Below, piece by piece: positions 3,343 to 51,725 of a stretch of 64,000 bases of DNA. The translations under genes were made by a program, and so were the position numbers. Source of the stretch: Minisyncoccota bacterium (GTDB lineage Bacteria > Patescibacteriota > Minisyncoccia > Minisyncoccales > JAGOPM01); contig JBAZJI010000001.1 of the NCBI GenBank assembly GCA_041651395.1, positions 379,920-443,919 of the forward strand, read 5' to 3'. Numbering within the stretch: the first letter of the stretch is position 1; the number at the start of each line of letters is the position of its first letter. Below the pieces are notes generated by a model. That model did not search any database and was not told the DNA's origin. It saw nothing but the letters and a program-made list of their open reading frames with translations.

Positions 3343-4746
3343 ATGGGAAAAAACTGTAAAACGTTTTGGGTTTTTTTAGCCATGGCTATAGTTGCCTTAA
3401 TACTTAGCGCCAATTCGGTTGCCTTAGCTTTTGAGGCATCCGATGCTGTGTGCGCCGAAAAGGCCTTGGATGCTTTTTGCGCCAAAGTAGAAAAGGAGGA
3501 GTGCGATATCAGCCTAAAGGCTTGTTTGGCAATGTTTGAACAGCGCGCCAAAATTTTTGATGCCGGTGTCCAAGAAGCTAAACAAAAAGGTAAAACCTTA
3601 AGCGGGGAAATTTCGTCTTTGCAATCGAAAATTAAAAAATTGGATAACGAAATCCAACATAATACGGTTATCATCAAAGATTTGACAGTCCAAGTTAAAA
3701 GCACCGAGGAATCCATTACTGACACCCAATCAAAAATTGAAGCAGCCCGGGAAAGGCTTAAGAGTTTGCTCGTTTCCATTTTTAAGGAGGATAATAAATC
3801 TGGCTTGGAGCTTATTTTGGGTGGGGAAAATTTGACCGAGACAGCTGATAATTTTATTGGTTTGAAAACCCTTTCAGAAAGGAATCAAGCGCTTTTGGCC
3901 ACGATCGTTGACTTGAAGACTTATTTAGAAAATCAGAAACAAAAGCTTGGGGAGCAAAAAGGGAGTTTAGAAGATGCGGTTGCAAAAAAAGAAGTGCAGA
4001 AAAACCAGAACGTGGAGTTGAAAGAGGAGAAAAATGAGGTTCTAACCCAAACTAAAGGCGAAGAAGCGCTCTTCCAGCAATACAAGCAGCAGGCTGAGGC
4101 ACGCGCCGCAAAAATCCGTTCTCGTATTTTTCAGCTAGCCGGCATTTCCGGGGTTTCCAAGGCGCCAAGCTTTGGTGAAGCCATTGAGATTGCACAGCGC
4201 GCTGGCGCCAAAGTTGGCGTTCGGCCGTCATTTATTTTGGCTATTCTAGCCCAGGAAACTCGCATTGGACAAAATGTGGGCAAATGTTACGTTGTGACTG
4301 AAGATGGCAAAGGCGCTAACGGCAAGCCAGTGATGCGGGCTAATCAAGTGATAGCCTTTATTCAAATCACCAAAGATGCCGGGCTTGATTTTAAGAGCGT
4401 GCCTGTTTCTTGCCCGATTCCCTCTATGGGGTGTCCCTATGGTGGGGCTATGGGCCCGGCGCAATTCATGCCAACCACTTGGAATCTTTTCAAAGATCAA
4501 ATTTCTGCTATTACCGGAAGAGCAGCCAATCCTTGGAATATCGAAGATGCTTTTTATGCCGCAGCCTTATTTGTTAAGGATGCCGGCGCCAATGCGGCCG
4601 GGAAGGGAGAGCTCAAAGCAGCGGCCAGATATTTTGGCTCCGGAGCTTATGGCTATCAAAACCAAGTGCAGGTGCGCGCTTCTTGTATCGAGAAATTTAT
4701 CGCCGAGGGAACGATGAGCACTAAGTGCGAGTCCATGATATTTTAA
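3343..4746 (+). CDS. Secreted coiled-coil protein with C-terminal MltB/SLT-like lytic transglycosylase domain
   Basis: 467 aa. Signal/TM segment FWVFLAMAIVALILSA, long heptad-rich middle region, and C-terminal SFILAILAQETRIGQN resembling the catalytic-Glu motif of lytic transglycosylases. Confidence 0.55.
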   Translation: MGKNCKTFWVFLAMAIVALILSANSVALAFEASDAVCAEKALDAFCAKVEKEECDISLKACLAMFEQRAKIFDAGVQEAKQKGKTLSGEISSLQSKIKKLDNEIQHNTVIIKDLTVQVKSTEESITDTQSKIEAARERLKSLLVSIFKEDNKSGLELILGGENLTETADNFIGLKTLSERNQALLATIVDLKTYLENQKQKLGEQKGSLEDAVAKKEVQKNQNVELKEEKNEVLTQTKGEEALFQQYKQQAEARAAKIRSRIFQLAGISGVSKAPSFGEAIEIAQRAGAKVGVRPSFILAILAQETRIGQNVGKCYVVTEDGKGANGKPVMRANQVIAFIQITKDAGLDFKSVPVSCPIPSMGCPYGGAMGPAQFMPTTWNLFKDQISAITGRAANPWNIEDAFYAAALFVKDAGANAAGKGELKAAARYFGSGAYGYQNQVQVRASCIEKFIAEGTMSTKCESMIF

Positions 4747-6273: not shown

Positions 6274-6363
6274 CTTTTCTTCCGAATCATTAATAATATA
6301 TCCCCCTCATTTTGGGGTTTTTATTTGCCGAACGGGAATATAAATCGCAAAAAAGGAGGTAGT

Positions 6364-8172: not shown

Positions 8173-8808
8173 ATGGATTTAATGTGGATTGCGCTTCTGG
8201 TAGCCGTAGCAAGCGCGATCATAATTATTATATTTTTATCCCGCAAGGCAAAAGTACTTGCGGATGTTGAGCCGCATAATGTAACGATTTCGCCGATACT
8301 TAATAAGGTAAAGGTGAAGGTTGGCAAATACAATGTTTTCAAAGATTTGGTGGCGGTTACGCTTTTGGAGAAGCTGATTATCAAGGTCAGGATTTGGGCG
8401 CAAAAGATAGAGAACCAAACTTTGCATTGGTTGGAACATTTGCGCGTGAATTATAAAAAAGAAAACCCTAATCCGGTTTTTTCTCCGGAATATTGGGACA
8501 ATTTGAAGCAGATGGCAGGCAAGAAGATACCAAGGAAGCAAAGTTCAAAATTCGAAGCTAGGAATCCGAATCAAGGTCTAAATCCTAAGCCCGAAATTAA
8601 AACGGAAATCAGGAAGCCCGAAGAGCAGAAGCCGCAACCCGCTCCTATATCACAAGTAAAGCCAGAGAATAAAAAACCCGAAGTGCGGAAATCCCAACAA
8701 GGTCCGGCGGTGCAGCCAAAAACAGAAGTAAAGAAACCAGAAGTGCAAGCACAACAAATAAATTCAGTTCAGCCAGTCAAGAATAAAATTGAAGAACGAG
8801 TTAAATAA
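8173..8808 (+). CDS. Membrane-anchored hypothetical protein with Lys/Pro/Glu-rich repeats
   Basis: N-terminal TM segment WIALLVAVASAIIIIIFL. C-terminal degenerate KPE/KKPEV repeats. Hairpin terminator at 8813-8834. Confidence 0.5.
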   Translation: MDLMWIALLVAVASAIIIIIFLSRKAKVLADVEPHNVTISPILNKVKVKVGKYNVFKDLVAVTLLEKLIIKVRIWAQKIENQTLHWLEHLRVNYKKENPNPVFSPEYWDNLKQMAGKKIPRKQSSKFEARNPNQGLNPKPEIKTEIRKPEEQKPQPAPISQVKPENKKPEVRKSQQGPAVQPKTEVKKPEVQAQQINSVQPVKNKIEERVK

Positions 8809-8835
8809 AATGTGCGGTTAGCCGCACGTTTTGTA

Positions 8836-8878
8836 ATGCCGGTGTACCTGCCTGCCGGCAGGCAGGGCTCAGTGGCAG
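8836..8878 (+). pseudogene. tRNA-Thr 5' fragment (acceptor 5' strand plus D-arm) interrupted by a 20-nt palindrome
   Basis: ATGCCGGTGTA (8836-8846) and GCTCAGTGGCAG (8867-8878) are identical to 9130-9152 of the intact tRNA. The two pieces are separated by CCTGCCTGCCGGCAGGCAGG. Confidence 0.7.
8847..8866. repeat. Perfect 20-nt palindrome CCTGCCTGCCGGCAGGCAGG (copy 1)
   Basis: Self-complementary. An identical copy lies at 51706-51725. Confidence 0.9.
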
Positions 8879-8886
8879 GAATAATC

Positions 8887-9141
8887 ATGAAATTCCATGT
8901 TTATGCCATAGTTAGCCTCAAGAAGAAAATGATTTATGTTGGCATGAGTAATAGTGTTTTCCGGAGAATTAAAGAGCATAATATGGGCACTGTACGCTCA
9001 ACAAAAGCATTTCGGCCGTGGAAATTAATATTTTCAAAAGAATTGTCGACGCGCGCCGAAGCGAGACGAGAAGAAAAAAAATTCAAAAGTGGTTCGTATA
9101 AAGAATATCTATATTCATTAATAAAAAATATGCCGGTGTAG
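8887..9141 (+). CDS. Small GIY-YIG nuclease family protein
   Basis: 84 aa starting MKFHVYAIVS...MIYVGMSNSVFRRIKEHN (the GIY...YVG motif region), followed by R...E...K. The last 4 codons and the stop are made of tRNA-Thr sequence. Confidence 0.75.
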   Translation: MKFHVYAIVSLKKKMIYVGMSNSVFRRIKEHNMGTVRSTKAFRPWKLIFSKELSTRAEARREEKKFKSGSYKEYLYSLIKNMPV

Positions 9142-9206
9142 CTCAGTGGCAGAGCAACTGTTTTGTAAACAGTAGGTCGGGGGTTCAAATCCCTTCACCG
9201 GCTCCA
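9132..9206 (+). tRNA. tRNA-Thr (anticodon UGU), CCA encoded
   Basis: Cloverleaf: GCCGGTG / GCTC..GAGC / ACTGT-TTTGTAA-ACAGT / GGGGG-TTCAAAT-CCCTT / CACCGGC, then T-CCA. Confidence 0.9.
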
Positions 9207-9220
9207 AGATAAATATAATC

Positions 9221-9369
9221 GCAACTGTTTTGTAAGCCGGTCGCCTTTGGCGAACCAGGCCGTCTTTCCGCTTAGAGTATCGGCCACCGCCGATAATTTA
9301 GTAATTTGTTTACTAAAGTAAACAAGGCGGTAAACAGTAGGTCGGGGGTTCAAATCCCTTCACCGGCTC
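9221..9369 (+). pseudogene. tRNA-Thr fragment (anticodon arm to 3' end) with an insert of about 98 nt in the anticodon loop
   Basis: GCAACTGTTTTGTAA (9221-9235) and ACAGTAGGTCGGGGGTTCAAATCCCTTCACCGGCTC (9334-9369) are identical to the intact gene. There is no acceptor 5' strand or D-arm. Confidence 0.65.
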
Positions 9370-9430
9370 ACTTTATAAAAACGCCATGCAAGTGGCGCTT
9401 TTATAAAATGGAAATTTAACTCTGTTGTTA

Positions 9431-9458
9431 TTGACATTTTTTGAATAAGTTATATAAT
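9431..9458 (+). promoter_or_regulatory. Sigma-70-type promoter (TTGACA-N16-TATAAT)
   Basis: Consensus hexamers at 9431-9436 and 9453-9458. Followed by a leader hairpin plus T-run at 9468-9504. Confidence 0.6.
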
Positions 9459-9545
9459 ATATTTATAGTAACACTTGAAAGATTTCGAGTGCTTACGTTT
9501 TTTTCAAAATTTAATAACGCATAAATATGCGGACAGGAGGATATA

Positions 9546-10874
9546 ATGACGGATAAGGGTGGTTGCTTTGGCCATAAAACGTGGCAAAGCGTTGAGTTTC
9601 CTGATGTATTTCCCAATCGAAAACGCCAAAGGATAATCGGAATGACGTTCCCGCGCTGTGACTTAAGCCTGGGGTTAGAGCCCTCAATTTTAACGGTACT
9701 GCCACCGGGTGACAATGTTGAGTACAATTTGACAAATGATTGTTTTAATGACGACGATGTAGAATATTACCTCTGCTCTGTTTATATCAGTGGACTTGAT
9801 GAATTCATTAAATGGGCCTCCAAACATGATAAAAACAAGATCGTGGTTGGCGGTTATCACCCAACAACATTTCCCGAAGATTTTACTCAACATGCTTTCA
9901 AGATAGTTCGGGGCCCTTGCGACGATTTTTTTGCAACCATCGCGCAATCCGGGCAAGTCGTTTTTGGGGTTACGAATTACCTCAATCTCCCGCGCCGAGA
10001 CCTTTATGACATGGCGTGCAATCAGCAAATTATACCCGACAAGCAAAAGGAGGATACTGTCGTATCAATTAATACTTCTTTAGGTTGCAACACAAAACCG
10101 CCCTGCGATTTTTGCTGCACCCCTATGATGTGCGCCAAGCTTTTATCCAAGCCGATAGAAGTTGTGAAAAATGAGACCTTGGAACTTGTGAAGTATAATC
10201 CCAAATTTATGTTTATTCGGGATGAAAATTTTACAATGCAGCCTGATTGGCGCCAACGCCTCATCTTAATGCATGGTATTTTGCCGAACACAAAGATTTA
10301 TCTTTTTGCTTCGGCTAATACTTTTACCAAGGAAGCGGCGAAGTTCATGTCAGAAAACGGCGTGTATATGGTTTGTTTGGGCCTTGAAGATCCAACAGTC
10401 CATTATGGGAAAAATCGGAATTTAGACAATGTCGTATCTTGGCTTAAGGAGTATGGGATCTATGTCTATCTTTCATTTATTGTTAACCCCTTGAATATTA
10501 TTGGCCGGCAAAAAGCTGAACAATTCTATAAAATCCTAATGGATAGAATTTTTGAGCTGGCTCCGGAAATGATATGTGGCAATTTTTTGATGCCATTTAG
10601 GGGAACCAAGATTTGGGATATCTACTATGCCCATGTTTCAAGAGAAGACTACAAATTCTATGACTCCAAAACACCTTTTCTAGTGCACAACGAAGTTGTG
10701 CGCGAGAAGATGAAGTTTTTTCTCTTCTGGTATCAGTGGCAATATTTCACCTCTGACTTTTACAACAGTAAGGTCAGAAAATTCGACACTGGAGACACTC
10801 TACATTTAAGATTTCTGGAACTCTATGACGTTTTCCGGAAGAAGTATGAGTTGATCTGGAATGAGAGGGCATAA
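9546..10874 (+). CDS. B12-binding-domain radical SAM protein (class B-like)
   Basis: 442 aa. VVGGYHPTTFPEDF resembles a cobalamin-binding domain. Cys cluster SLGCNTKPPCDFCC (Cx5Cx2C spacing). AGGAGG SD. Confidence 0.65.
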   Translation: MTDKGGCFGHKTWQSVEFPDVFPNRKRQRIIGMTFPRCDLSLGLEPSILTVLPPGDNVEYNLTNDCFNDDDVEYYLCSVYISGLDEFIKWASKHDKNKIVVGGYHPTTFPEDFTQHAFKIVRGPCDDFFATIAQSGQVVFGVTNYLNLPRRDLYDMACNQQIIPDKQKEDTVVSINTSLGCNTKPPCDFCCTPMMCAKLLSKPIEVVKNETLELVKYNPKFMFIRDENFTMQPDWRQRLILMHGILPNTKIYLFASANTFTKEAAKFMSENGVYMVCLGLEDPTVHYGKNRNLDNVVSWLKEYGIYVYLSFIVNPLNIIGRQKAEQFYKILMDRIFELAPEMICGNFLMPFRGTKIWDIYYAHVSREDYKFYDSKTPFLVHNEVVREKMKFFLFWYQWQYFTSDFYNSKVRKFDTGDTLHLRFLELYDVFRKKYELIWNERA

Positions 10875-11568: not shown

Positions 11569-11723
11569 GCCAACACGTGACTAACCACGTCACTAGATCG
11601 TTTCAAATTGAATAACCACCTAAATTATTGATTTATATTTTTGGTGCCAGCCAAAAATATATTAGACGAAGCAATTTTTTGCGGCATTGGCCGTTAAAAG
11701 TTGTTTCATTATACGTTTATTTT

Positions 11724-13200
<1,477 letters not shown>

Positions 13201-13453
13201 TATTTTTTCATCTTTTTTCTTCGGAAAAATGCATGAAAGAAAAGGCGATAGGGTTTGAGAACTGGAATTCCGTTCTTAAATTCACAACTTAGCCTTACCC
13301 TTTGGGGCATCTTAGGAAATACCGAAGGGGACGTATAATGGACAACTTTTAGTGGCAAATGTTTTAGATGGTTATTCAATTTGAAGCGAAGCCCGCCGAA
13401 AGGCGGGTTTTTGCGTGTAATAAAAAACAGCTTAGTTAAAGCTGTTATGATGA

Positions 13454-19872: not shown

Positions 19873-20123
19873 GCCCTTACGCTCAGAAATGACTAAAACC
19901 TATTTTAAGAGCATCAAAAAACGTCAAGCGATTAACTAACCGTCCATTTGGACTGTGGTTAAGTCGCTCAAAAGCGACTTTTTTGTTTCTCACATTTCTG
20001 CCGCGGGTTCTTAAACAACTGAATATTAGAGAATATAAGATAAGGAAAATAATAAGAGTAAAGAACAAAGAAAATAAACAATAATATTATTTATATTATT
20101 GTGGTCTTAAATTGCTAGTTGAA

Positions 20124-23075
<2,952 letters not shown>

Positions 23076-23133
23076 CAGCTAGCAATTTAGGATCTCAGTA
23101 TCGTTAGCTTATATTCTTTTTGTGCACATTTAT

Positions 23134-23236
23134 TGGGGGCTATGCCAGTGTTGTCCCACCCGTTCCCATTCCGAACACGGAAGTGAAATACACTATGGCC
23201 GATGATAGTCGCAAGGCGAAAGTAGGTAGCCCCCGA
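23134..23236 (+). rRNA. rrf: 5S ribosomal RNA
   Basis: CCCACCCGTTCCCATTCCGAACACGGAAGTGAAA core. Flanked by the inverted repeat TGTGCACATTTAT / ATAAATGTGCACA. Confidence 0.9.
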
Positions 23237-23251
23237 TAAATGTGCACAAGC

Positions 23252-26924: not shown

Positions 26925-27071
26925 TTAAATAAAACTCCGTAAAACGGAGTAAGTTTTCTAGCTGTAGTCAATTAGCGTGTTGGGTCAGGCGGCGCACCAA
27001 ATCGTTTGACGTGCCCATATAAAAACGACCCGATGATATGCTCTCAAGTATATAAACGAAGTATTTCACGG

Positions 27072-27143
27072 TGGGCGATAGAGGATTCGAACCTCTAACC
27101 CTTCGCACGTCAAGCGAATGCTCTACCGTTGAGCTAACCGCCC
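27072..27143 (-). tRNA. tRNA-Val (anticodon GAC)
   Basis: Reverse complement GGGCGGT-TA-GCTC..GAGC-A-TTCGC-TTGACGT-GCGAA-..-AGAGG-TTCGAAT-CCTCT-ATCGCCC-A. CCA is not encoded. Confidence 0.9.
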
Positions 27144-51705: not shown

Positions 51706-51725
51706 CCTGCCTGCCGGCAGGCAGG
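51706..51725. repeat. Perfect 20-nt palindrome CCTGCCTGCCGGCAGGCAGG (copy 2)
   Basis: Identical to 8847-8866. Here the palindrome extends to 22 nt (A...T). Confidence 0.9.

Follow-up and report, generated by a model that had tools for sequence, protein, structure and literature searches.

Free-standing GIY-YIG homing endonucleases near transfer RNA (tRNA) genes are already known from phages. The phage protein SegB cleaves within tRNA genes at a conserved motif of the T-arm, homes together with the neighbouring tRNA genes and drives a recombination-dependent amplification of the segment formed by segB and the tRNA genes (PMC2330249; PMC13096335). Another group of GIY-YIG proteins, the stand-alone Slx1-like family, was described in a survey from 2006 as mostly vertically inherited. 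This survey does not mention tRNA genes; it gives the HN motif after a conserved Arg and the lack of a conserved C-terminal Asn as marks of the family, and refers to an older prediction of a role in double-strand-break repair for the prokaryotic members (PMC1564403). Here, we describe a locus on a stretch of 64,000 nucleotides (nt) of contig JBAZJI010000001.1 from a Minisyncoccota bacterium (below, the window is this whole stretch), in which the gene for tRNA-Thr(UGU) is interrupted by DNA that contains a small GIY-YIG gene. We consider it probable that this region is a tRNA-Thr(UGU) gene colonised by a homing-endonuclease-like selfish cassette, which is built around the minimal GIY-YIG gene and carries or regenerates a working tRNA.

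The element lies within a resident tRNA gene, a presumably functional tRNA has been retained next to it, and similar arrangements recur at other tRNA genes, in part as decayed copies. A comparison of repeats within the window has shown that tRNA-Thr(UGU) is wholly duplicated: one intact copy (9132-9206) is enclosed by an outer copy that consists of four collinear pieces. The features of the locus, in their order along the window, are as follows.

8811-8833, plus strand: terminator-like hairpin of the upstream gene (211 amino acids, aa), which marks the ancestral start of tRNA-Thr
8838-8846, plus strand: first piece of the outer tRNA-Thr (positions 1-9), an exact copy of 9132-9140
8847-8866, no strand: perfect palindrome CCTGCCTGCCGGCAGGCAGG of 20 bp (10+10, without spacer), between tRNA positions 9 and 10
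8867-8878, plus strand: second piece of the outer tRNA-Thr (positions 10-21), an exact copy of 9141-9152
8879-9220, plus strand: inserted block of 342 bp that stands in place of A22 of the resident tRNA, made of an 8-nt leader, the GIY-YIG open reading frame (ORF), a complete tRNA-Thr and a 14-nt 3' flank
8887-9141, plus strand: GIY-YIG nuclease ORF, 84 aa (Pfam PF01541)
9132-9206, plus strand: inner, intact tRNA-Thr(UGU) with encoded CCA (ARAGORN; Rfam tRNA, 73.5 bits)
9207-9220, plus strand: 14-nt 3' flank AGATAAATATAATC that accompanies the inner tRNA, as read from the sequence
9221-9235, plus strand: third piece of the outer tRNA-Thr (positions 23-37), an exact copy of 9154-9168
9236-9329, plus strand: structured insert of 94 nt, which interrupts the anticodon loop of the outer tRNA at canonical position 37/38 and has GTAA on either side
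9330-9369, plus strand: fourth piece of the outer tRNA-Thr (positions 34-73, without CCA), an exact 40-nt copy of 9165-9204
9382-9397: native terminator after the fourth piece
9431-9458: promoter of the radical-SAM gene (12/12 match to sigma-70)

The first 21 nt of the tRNA and two leader bases, that is, ATGCCGGTGTA (8836-8846) and GCTCAGTGGCAG (8867-8878), are exact repeats of 9130-9140 and 9141-9152. The split pattern GCCGGTGTA-N(0-30)-GCTCAGTGGCAG occurs twice in the window and not once in 100 shuffles that preserve dinucleotide composition. A first-pass annotation of the window had already pointed out this 23-nt repeat, its split by the palindrome between positions 9 and 10, the ORF, and the stop codon that lies inside the tRNA (the ORF ends in AAT ATG CCG GTG TAG, and the stop codon is formed by tRNA nucleotides 8-10), and we found all of these where it had placed them. 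It had described a duplication of the 5' end only. The 5' repeat stands, but the duplication is not limited to it, as positions 23-37 and 34-73 are repeated downstream as well.

All outer pieces are 100% identical to the inner tRNA, and together they are complete but for A22 and the CCA end; when joined in silico they give a cloverleaf with a single A22-to-G change. The outer copy is thus split three times, by the 20-bp palindrome, by the 342-bp block and by the 94-nt insert. The palindrome was inserted without a target-site duplication. At the block, the resident tRNA-Thr is broken in its D-arm, where the upstream piece stops at position 21 and the downstream part resumes at 23, and every position of the outer copy is present once, save for a 4-nt overlap (GTAA). 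The only ORF of the block is the GIY-YIG gene, and no tyrosine or serine recombinase is found in the block; an AGGA Shine-Dalgarno motif is created where the tRNA fragment meets the block. Since the block holds a complete tRNA-Thr, which is presumably functional, the cell keeps one working tRNA though the old gene is dead. The 94-nt insert folds into three hairpins (RNA fold z-score -3.2), and its initial six bases, GCCGGT, are the first six of the tRNA; it has no Rfam match and no further copy in the window or in the fetched loci. A search of the region 8300-9900 against Rfam at E<=10 gave the tRNA as the only significant match, and no Intron_gpI, group II intron or ribozyme.

The locus is unlikely to be an artefact of assembly, because the longest internal repeat has 40 nt, as compared to the 141-nt k-mer implied by the contig name (k141_...), and because a contig from another sample of the same species (L137), which begins inside the repeated T-arm, continues into an identical downstream flank.

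To see the site without the element, we turned to relatives found through the neighbouring tsf gene and kept those with the same rpsB-tsf-X synteny. Their EF-Ts proteins are 88% (L133), 71% (L134) and 56% (L135) identical to that of the window. L133 has the same terminator hairpin and, 9 nt further on, an uninterrupted tRNA-Thr(UGU); in L134 and L135 an uninterrupted tRNA-Thr(UGU) directly follows gene X. In the alignment of the tRNA-Thr site, neither the palindrome nor the ORF nor the 94-nt insert is present in any of the three. As the relatives are uninterrupted at the outer position, the palindrome, the block and the 94-nt insert of the window are insertions. The outer 5' piece thus lies at the ancestral position of the gene, and all three are specific to the lineage of the window. 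The first-pass annotation had suggested such a comparison of tRNA-Thr loci, and these three empty sites, together with the recurrence at other tRNA genes described below, support the core of its proposal, a mobile GIY-YIG insertion at tRNA-Thr that left a functional tRNA.

The contigs of L133 and L134 stop inside the T-arm of tRNA-Thr (at 6329 and 3339, respectively). Together with the start of L137, these ends suggest that in those populations, too, the assembly graph branches at a repeated or polymorphic 3' half of the tRNA. The nearest radical-SAM homologue, which we sought for the ancestral 3' flank, is not syntenic with the window. The end of the inner tRNA, CCA-AGATAAAT, resembles the flank of the native tRNA-Thr of L135, CCA-AGAAAAAT, and the outer piece ends in GGCTCAC without CCA. 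Judged by these letters, there is a weak hint that the inner tRNA and its flank may have been imported from another tRNA-Thr locus.

Next, we asked whether relatives of the nuclease are found at tRNA genes as well. All initially examined homologues with sufficient flanking sequence abut a tRNA on the same strand. Overall, a same-strand tRNA lies within ~110 nt of 20/29 family ORFs (17/25 ORFs of the first set of loci, and those of L141, L142 and L143), where a rough expectation for a random gene would be 1-2%. In 17 of these 20 cases, part of the same tRNA is repeated on the far side of the ORF. In total, the architecture is seen at more than 15 independent tRNA loci, with Thr, Arg-CCU, Arg-UCG, Pro-CGG, Lys-CUU, Asn, Ser, Leu and Met isoacceptors, in hosts that include Paceibacterota, Gottesmanbacteria, Bacteroidota (Agriterribacter, Moheibacter and a contig with a Flavo-1 RNA) and Ignavibacteriota. 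There are two mirror-image layouts, with the ORF upstream (class A) or downstream (class B) of the intact tRNA.

Class A (5' tRNA fragment, ORF, intact tRNA): the window (Thr); L004, L142, L143, L144 (Arg-CCU); L005 (Pro-CGG); L009 (Lys-CUU)
Class A, further loci: L056, L141 (Asn); L062 (Ser); L106 (Arg-UCG); L085 (Lys)
Class B (intact tRNA with or without terminator, ORF, 3' tRNA fragment with or without a copy of the terminator): L002 (Leu-UAA); L006, L007 (Pro-CGG); L008, L010 (Met)
tRNA followed by ORF as in class B, with no 3' fragment detected: L012 (Met), L064 (Ser) and a tRNA-Val remnant in the window

In most class A loci the ORF ends between -27 and +8 nt of tRNA position 1; the exceptions are L062, where the gap is 87 nt, and L141, where it is ~107 nt and a further fragment lies between ORF and tRNA. 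The fragments of class A end anywhere in positions 21-54. L009 is nested like the window, that is, fragments flank the unit of ORF and tRNA on both sides. In L085 the upstream fragment is Lys-UUU-like and the adjacent intact tRNA is Lys-CUU; a fragment from a different isoacceptor means that fragments can travel with the ORF. In L144 a native tRNA promoter, TTGAAC-17-TATAAT, precedes the fragment, so the ORF is probably transcribed from the tRNA promoter. The proteins partly group by tRNA identity across taxa, with a Met group (Agriterribacter, Moheibacter, Melioribacteraceae) and a Pro-CGG group, in a tree that is weak, the proteins being short. At the tRNA-Asn locus of L056 (~1107-1198), the flanks lengthen the acceptor helix by 9 bp (ATCCTAAGC ... 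GCTTAGGAT), and 18 nt of this leader sequence belong to the duplicate that precedes the ORF.

Several copies are decaying. The window itself contains one of them, with no tRNA-Val fragment found beyond it:

26971-27072, minus strand: truncated GIY-YIG remnant (...KYFVYILESISSGRFYMGTSNDLVRRLTQHAN*) directly 3' of tRNA-Val(GAC) at 27070-27143 (minus strand); profile positions 3-33 of the family hidden Markov model, E 3.4e-6

With this remnant, the genome has two tRNA-associated copies, one of them decayed. Decay is also seen in L050 and in the second of the copies of L006. In L143 and L144 truncation has left an ORF of 60 aa, as compared to 91 aa in L004 and L142. A second tRNA-Met-associated ORF in L008 (5349-5588), 2.3 kb away from the first, is preceded by the last bases of tRNA-Met and a terminator, and its C-terminus is fused to coding sequence of another kind; this ORF has the appearance of a copy that was displaced and took its tRNA flank with it.

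What kind of nuclease is this? The 84-aa ORF matches the Pfam GIY-YIG domain PF01541 with E 8.9e-14 (52 bits, cut-off 22.6), residues 3-68 corresponding to positions 2-70 of the 78 in the profile. The domain spans nearly the whole protein, and there is no second or accessory domain. Members of the family have 80-91 aa once miscalled extensions are removed. The best matches in the PDB are 1YWL (E. faecalis EF2693, E 2e-4) and 1ZG2 (B. halodurans BH0048, E 2e-3), followed by weak matches to eukaryotic SLX1; neither I-TevI nor UvrC is among the PDB matches at E<=1, and the NCBIfam model for group I intron endonucleases gives 16.9 bits against a cut-off of 56. In an alignment of 14 homologues with 32-54% pairwise identity, Y6, G19, H31, N32, T39, E63 and K67 are invariant, Y17 and R27 are conserved in at least 90%, and there is no invariant C-terminal Asn after E63. 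The conservation of the catalytic residues Y6, Y17, G19, R27, H31, N32 and E63 means that the enzyme is under selection, and the C-termini are variable and frequently encoded by the tRNA itself. From these comparisons, the protein is a minimal stand-alone GIY-YIG nuclease of the Slx1/UPF0213 (COG2827) type, with the catalytic domain only and with predicted nuclease activity. The first-pass annotation had pointed to free-standing GIY-YIG homing endonucleases, with T4 SegB as an example. The protein is not a homing endonuclease of the Seg/I-TevI type with a DNA-binding domain; it has only the 84-aa catalytic domain, and its nearest relatives are the stand-alone UPF0213 proteins (bacterial Slx1-like).

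The family is large: 3,914 representative clusters match at E<=1e-3, and 177 remain at E<=1e-10. Two single-protein queries of the IMG/VR viral contigs gave no relatives. Matches in phages are 34-36% identical, and the one for which the context was checked is not tRNA-adjacent; the single plasmid match is B. subtilis yazA. Gene calls need some care. In public data our ORF is wrongly called with 109 aa, since the call also takes in the tRNA fragment and the palindrome, and the C-terminal tails GVEQSGSSRGS of P0265, P0328, P0351 and P0372 are a read-through into the 5' half of an initiator-like tRNA-Met (CGCGGGGTAGAGCAGTCTGGTAGCTCG...). As these tails are read from tRNA-Met, public gene calls for the family often carry extensions derived from the tRNA and the palindrome.

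The palindrome that splits the outer tRNA-Thr is not confined to this locus. L004, L143, L144, L056, L062, L085 (twice) and L106 (twice) carry the identical 20-mer within the D-arm portion of their 5' fragment, and in L141 the ORF is flanked by a variant with one mismatch. Fragments that bear the palindrome are found on either side of the ORF in L062 and L141, and the palindrome is downstream of the ORF in L102, P0315 and P0351. A peptide encoded by the palindrome occurs in 20/150 of the closest family representatives (at least 13%), in 18 of these 20 within a miscalled N-terminal extension. These peptides come in three reading frames (LPAGRQ, PACRQA and CLPAGR), so the palindrome is conserved at the DNA level. 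For 14 clusters the distance from its end to the true start codon could be measured, and it amounts to 8-29 nt with a median of 16.5; in the window it is 20 nt. Its position within the D-arm varies, from 9/10 to ~23/24.

A scan of metagenomes for the palindrome has given at least 120 stretches, and we analysed 127 copies in 120 loci. Most of these copies are solo, with unrelated flanks and without target-site duplication, in DNA of 29-71% G+C. Among the matches listed, a GIY-YIG gene lies within 600 nt of ~8/127 copies; within 1.5 kb of the palindrome, GIY-YIG proteins are nonetheless the largest family and the only one that clearly recurs (6 loci; other clusters have at most 2), and IS200/RAYT-like ORFs are near two or three of the 120 loci. 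The window also has a solo copy:

51706-51725, no strand: second, likewise perfect copy of the palindrome, intergenic, ~117 nt 3' of tRNA-Lys(UUU) and beyond its terminator

Together with the flanking A and T this copy comes to 22 bp. On the minus strand TGTA stands before it, as is the case for the copy at tRNA-Thr, and no tRNA-Lys fragments were detected around it. The first-pass annotation had joined the palindrome and the GIY-YIG gene in one cassette. We see that the palindrome is a recurrent companion of the gene but not an obligatory part, as many family members lack it and most of its copies are solo. At the same time, we saw neither relatives with the same arrangement but without repeats nor a family without association with tRNA genes or the palindrome, either of which would have spoken against that annotation, because the relatives have empty sites, the family is associated with tRNA genes and the palindrome recurs with it.

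Palindromes associated with tRNA sit only in partial fragments. We never saw the palindrome in an otherwise complete tRNA, and its deletion in silico restored a full tRNA in 0/130 cases. Loci without the 20-mer have GC-rich palindromes of other kinds, which interrupt stem-loops of the dead fragments or take their place, and which are never found in the intact tRNAs. For example, TCCCGAC(N3-7)GTCGGGA replaces the anticodon arm in L006 (3260), L007 (1565) and L009 (2961 and 3327), a TCCGCCGCGGCGGA palindrome is found in the fragments of L008 (2861 and 3256), a 52-nt double hairpin lies in the T-loop of the dead fragment of L002 (~4290-4345), and an 87-nt element with 9-nt inverted ends lies in the D-loop of the dead fragment of L005 (~2840-2930).

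Three further ideas on the palindromes were dropped. A preference for the loops of pre-existing hairpins was not significant (Mann-Whitney p=0.07 against random junctions in the same loci). The idea that palindromes shield the element by breaking the flanking repeat finds no consistent support: L002 keeps a nearly uninterrupted repeat of ~62 nt, and in L006, L007, L008 and L009 it has 27-28 nt. Finally, TCCCGAC...GTCGGGA at position 20780 of the window, a candidate for a second palindrome family, is a helix of the 23S rRNA gene and thus a coincidence.

Some observations on the surroundings of the palindrome may be added. Three unrelated contigs (L037, L097 and L129) have a common unit of CG, the palindrome and GCC(TAC)TCTAACGGG, with a conserved 12-nt tail and different flanks; this extended unit has no match in Rfam. 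Another GIY-YIG subfamily (...REKEIKKWRREKK...NPQW...), which is not tRNA-adjacent, occurs in L102 (4955-5538) and also in the L010, L014, L057, L068, L090 and L125 flanks; its flanking repeats are TGTCAT(T/A)TCGAGGGAAG...CGACGAGA and hairpins of the GTCATTCTGAGCG type, with the 20-bp palindrome inserted in several of them. The IS200/RAYT-like ORFs near the palindrome (YHIYNRG...LMPNHFHLL) are in L023 (506-1204) and L054 (~3593), and the copy in L054 falls inside the MPNHVH motif of a gene of this type. Transposases of this family might, as an alternative, mobilise the palindrome. The palindrome itself may be an element end or recognition site, a scar or an independent hitch-hiker; a 20-bp sequence conserved throughout DNA of 29-71% G+C points to recognition by a conserved protein.

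How could such a structure have arisen? We infer a cleavage site, a mechanism of mobility and a role of the nuclease along the following lines. The nuclease would break or nick tRNA genes, in the D-arm for class A and in the T-arm or variable region for class B. The break would then be repaired from an ORF-carrying copy at an occupied locus, as in homing, using tRNA homology on one side and often an illegitimate joining on the other. Such one-sided homology with illegitimate joining would explain both the variable ends of the fragments and the partial or whole duplication of the tRNA. In the window, the end formed by positions 1-21 would have primed the copying of the ORF, the tRNA and the 14 nt from a donor tRNA-Thr locus, and the copied product would have been end-joined to position 23 with the loss of A22; this scheme would reproduce the observed structure exactly. 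The ORF would probably be co-transcribed with the tRNA from the upstream signals of the latter, and cleavage by RNase P at the 5' end of the tRNA would set the 3' end of the mRNA. Since the enzyme has no DNA-binding domain, a structure-specific recognition of hairpins or cruciforms, as for Slx1, would be an attractive, if conjectural, idea.

Several points weigh against a colonisation of the tRNA gene by a selfish cassette. The stand-alone Slx1-like family has been described as mostly vertical and predicted to act in double-strand-break repair (PMC1564403), and our protein, lacking a DNA-binding domain, has a cleavage activity and a target site that are predictions. If the D-arm is the target, the inner, intact tRNA still contains it, and the avoidance of self-cleavage then needs an extra explanation. 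In the two closest relatives, the downstream side of the empty site is out of view, as the contigs end in the T-arm. The likeness of the inner flank to that of L135 amounts to 10/11 nt of AT-rich sequence, and an import from another genome is not demonstrable, because the inner and outer copies are identical. Furthermore, 9/29 family ORFs have no tRNA nearby, the widely varying ends of the fragments are unlike a precise site-specific insertion, and two-sided fragments are found only in the window and in L009, so a cassette that carries its own tRNA may not be general.

On the other hand, the palindrome could be more than a companion. It is possible, although we are inclined to doubt it, that palindrome and nuclease form a so far unrecognised, transposon-like class of minimal mobile elements, in which the palindrome is the end or recognition site and the catalytic-domain-only GIY-YIG nuclease is the only protein. 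The nuclease would recognise or cut the palindrome, its hairpin or its cruciform; tRNA genes would be the places where copies of the ORF survive, since there the tRNA is regenerated and its transcription used; and the hundreds of solo palindromes in various phyla would be non-autonomous copies, or footprints left after flanking palindromes had recombined and deleted the ORF. This partly overlaps with the explanation that we prefer. The tight spacing between palindrome and start codon argues for it (8-29 nt in the 14 clusters, and 19-22 nt in the window, L141, L085 and L106), as do the palindromes that flank the ORF in L062 and L141 or follow it in L102, P0315 and P0351, the position of GIY-YIG as the only clearly recurrent family near the palindrome, and the precise insertions without target-site duplication. 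All 20/20 positions of the palindrome are conserved in DNA of 29-71% G+C, with proteins that are 32-57% identical. GIY-YIG restriction enzymes recognise short palindromes as oligomers, which would fit as well. However, ~92% of the palindrome copies among the matches listed have no GIY-YIG gene in the fetched flanks, many family members have no palindrome or a different one (TCCCGAC...GTCGGGA or TCCGCCGCGGCGGA), and the position in the D-arm varies. Two-sided fragments repeat tRNA sequence too, and so resemble a duplicated target rather than an element end; the IS200/RAYT-like genes in two or three loci would offer a different mobiliser; and we know of no GIY-YIG-only transposase in prokaryotes. 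If the idea were true, part of a "housekeeping" family (UPF0213/Slx1-like) would be selfish DNA, mobilised by a nuclease and a 20-bp site alone.

Somewhat more doubtful is a series of two or more local events, in which an element of the ORF only caused a 5' duplication, a partial duplication or nuclease-stimulated amplification followed later, and the nesting between positions 21 and 23 is a coincidence. Most class A loci do have the 5' fragment only (L004 with L142 and L143, L005, L056 and L106), and there are tandem arrays of tRNA, ORF and fragments in L006, L062, L085 and L141. SegB would be a precedent, as it drives a tandem amplification, dependent on recombination, of the segment with segB and the tRNA genes (PMC13096335). 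What speaks against such a history is the precision of the locus in the window: complementary end-points (21, then 23) are estimated to arise in ~4% of independent events, each position of the outer tRNA is present once apart from the GTAA overlap, and there is a comparable nesting in L009.

An ordinary housekeeping repair nuclease that happens to lie beside a tRNA, with repeats due to chance, to assembly or to the att sites of an integrase island, is very improbable and already contradicted by the data. It is true that tRNA genes are classical integration sites with flanking direct repeats. The mostly vertical inheritance and predicted repair role of the stand-alone Slx1-like proteins would also agree with it (PMC1564403). 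Nevertheless, shuffles yield no such repeats, the repeats are far below the assembly k-mer in length and the contig of a second sample has the same downstream flank, there is no integrase and the element has just ~340 bp, and the empty sites in relatives, the more than 15 independent tRNA loci and the patchy, partly decaying copies all disagree with it.

The idea that the outer copy is a functional split or multi-intron tRNA and the ORF an intron-encoded homing endonuclease is hardly credible: the collinear pieces do make a good cloverleaf, and the 94-nt insert has a significant structure and is taken by ARAGORN (as 96 nt) for a 37/38 intron once the other two insertions are removed by hand, but the region has no group I/II intron or ribozyme match at E<=10, the 20-nt palindrome and the 342-nt tRNA-bearing block match no known bacterial intron type, group I introns are usually longer than the 94 nt of the anticodon-loop insert, the genome is bacterial (EF-Ts, S2) and bacteria are, to our knowledge, without the archaeal splicing endonuclease (for which the window was not searched), the outer copy lacks A22 and is dispensable given the intact tRNA-Thr inside, and the gene is uninterrupted in relatives.

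Returning to the tRNA gene colonised by a selfish cassette, we see several implications. UPF0213/COG2827 proteins are annotated as putative repair nucleases, and the family may have to be reinterpreted: one of its subfamilies appears to be selfish and homing-like, with tRNA genes as its speciality, in at least three phyla, among them the candidate phyla radiation (CPR) with its reduced genomes. An essential single-copy RNA gene can be invaded, and no intron is needed for it, because the element duplicates or brings the tRNA. For the annotation of metagenome-assembled genomes, the consequences are tRNA fragments, miscalled extensions (LPAGRQ, GVEQSGSSRGS) and assembly breaks. The palindrome, conserved over 29-71% G+C, offers a direct handle for biochemistry. 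Neither chromosomal minimal GIY-YIG genes within tRNA genes nor the palindrome sequence turned up in the searchable full-text literature, with subscription-only papers outside it. What appears to be new is a chromosomal, catalytic-domain-only subfamily of the Slx1/UPF0213 type in the tRNA genes of several phyla, with flanking tRNA fragments and a link to a 20-bp palindrome that is the same in hosts with widely differing base composition.

As a side observation on the window, its rRNA genes are unlinked: the 16S gene (11722-13205) is separated from the 23S (20118-23081) and 5S (23132-23238) genes by ~6.9 kb of protein-coding genes on both strands.

Finally, how does the locus compare with the known systems? 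Integrase islands and prophages sit in tRNA genes, with direct repeats of part of the tRNA and a regenerated intact tRNA. Our locus is similar in that an element lies in a tRNA gene, direct repeats of a tRNA part flank it and an intact tRNA is present. Unlike an island, it has no recombinase and a size of ~0.3 kb, the repeats consist of the 5' part, the 3' part or the whole tRNA with variable end-points, and the structure in the window is a simple nested insertion and not a product of the Campbell type.

The palindrome, in turn, can be compared with bacterial repetitive extragenic palindromic (REP) elements, which have their REP-associated tyrosine transposases (RAYT), and with the GC clusters of fungal mitochondria, which accompany mobile endonuclease ORFs. 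Like these, it is a short GC-rich palindrome dispersed in intergenic DNA, without an obvious target-site duplication and with some copies beside a selfish nuclease ORF. Multi-copy dispersal outside genes is also a trait of MITE-type repeats. REPs, however, are species-specific and imperfect, whereas this is a perfect 20-bp palindrome, identical across 29-71% G+C; no RAYT is consistently near, its preferred companion is the GIY-YIG gene and its preferred site the D-arm of dead tRNA fragments.

As a protein, the nuclease resembles the stand-alone Slx1-like UPF0213/COG2827 family, which also includes E. coli YhbQ: it has one GIY-YIG domain in ~80-100 aa, its conserved Arg is followed by an HN motif, and a conserved C-terminal Asn is lacking. 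The identity to the solved UPF0213 proteins is low (E 2e-4 and 2e-3). In contrast to the mostly vertical inheritance of that family (PMC1564403), the subfamily described here behaves like a mobile one, as it is absent from three syntenic relatives with empty sites, has decaying copies and is flanked by target duplications.

Group I introns with homing endonuclease genes in the anticodon loops of tRNA genes also interrupt a tRNA by mobile DNA that can encode a GIY-YIG protein (PMC3984707), and the 94-nt insert at 37/38 lies in that loop. Unlike them, our locus has no ribozyme, the ORF block lies in the D-arm, and function is kept by a duplicate tRNA and not by splicing.

The comparison with SegB is an analogy, by which activity, target site and mechanism of mobility would be extrapolated to our locus. 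SegB is a phage protein of the homing endonuclease/UvrC lineage with an extra DNA-binding region and a 27-bp recognition site, whereas here we have an 84-aa catalytic domain of the Slx1/UPF0213 lineage. The elements described here are chromosomal, in CPR bacteria, Bacteroidota and Ignavibacteriota, and the ORF directly adjoins or overlaps the tRNA, with partial tRNA copies and palindromes on its flanks, features that are not described for SegB in the sections consulted (PMC2330249; PMC13096335). As in the SegB systems of T4 and T6, a free-standing GIY-YIG gene is found among or next to tRNA genes, with many tRNA isotypes and truncated copies (PMC2330249; PMC13096335). Like SegB, it is accompanied by no intron or ribozyme, and the cognate tRNA-Thr sites in L133, L134 and L135 are empty.

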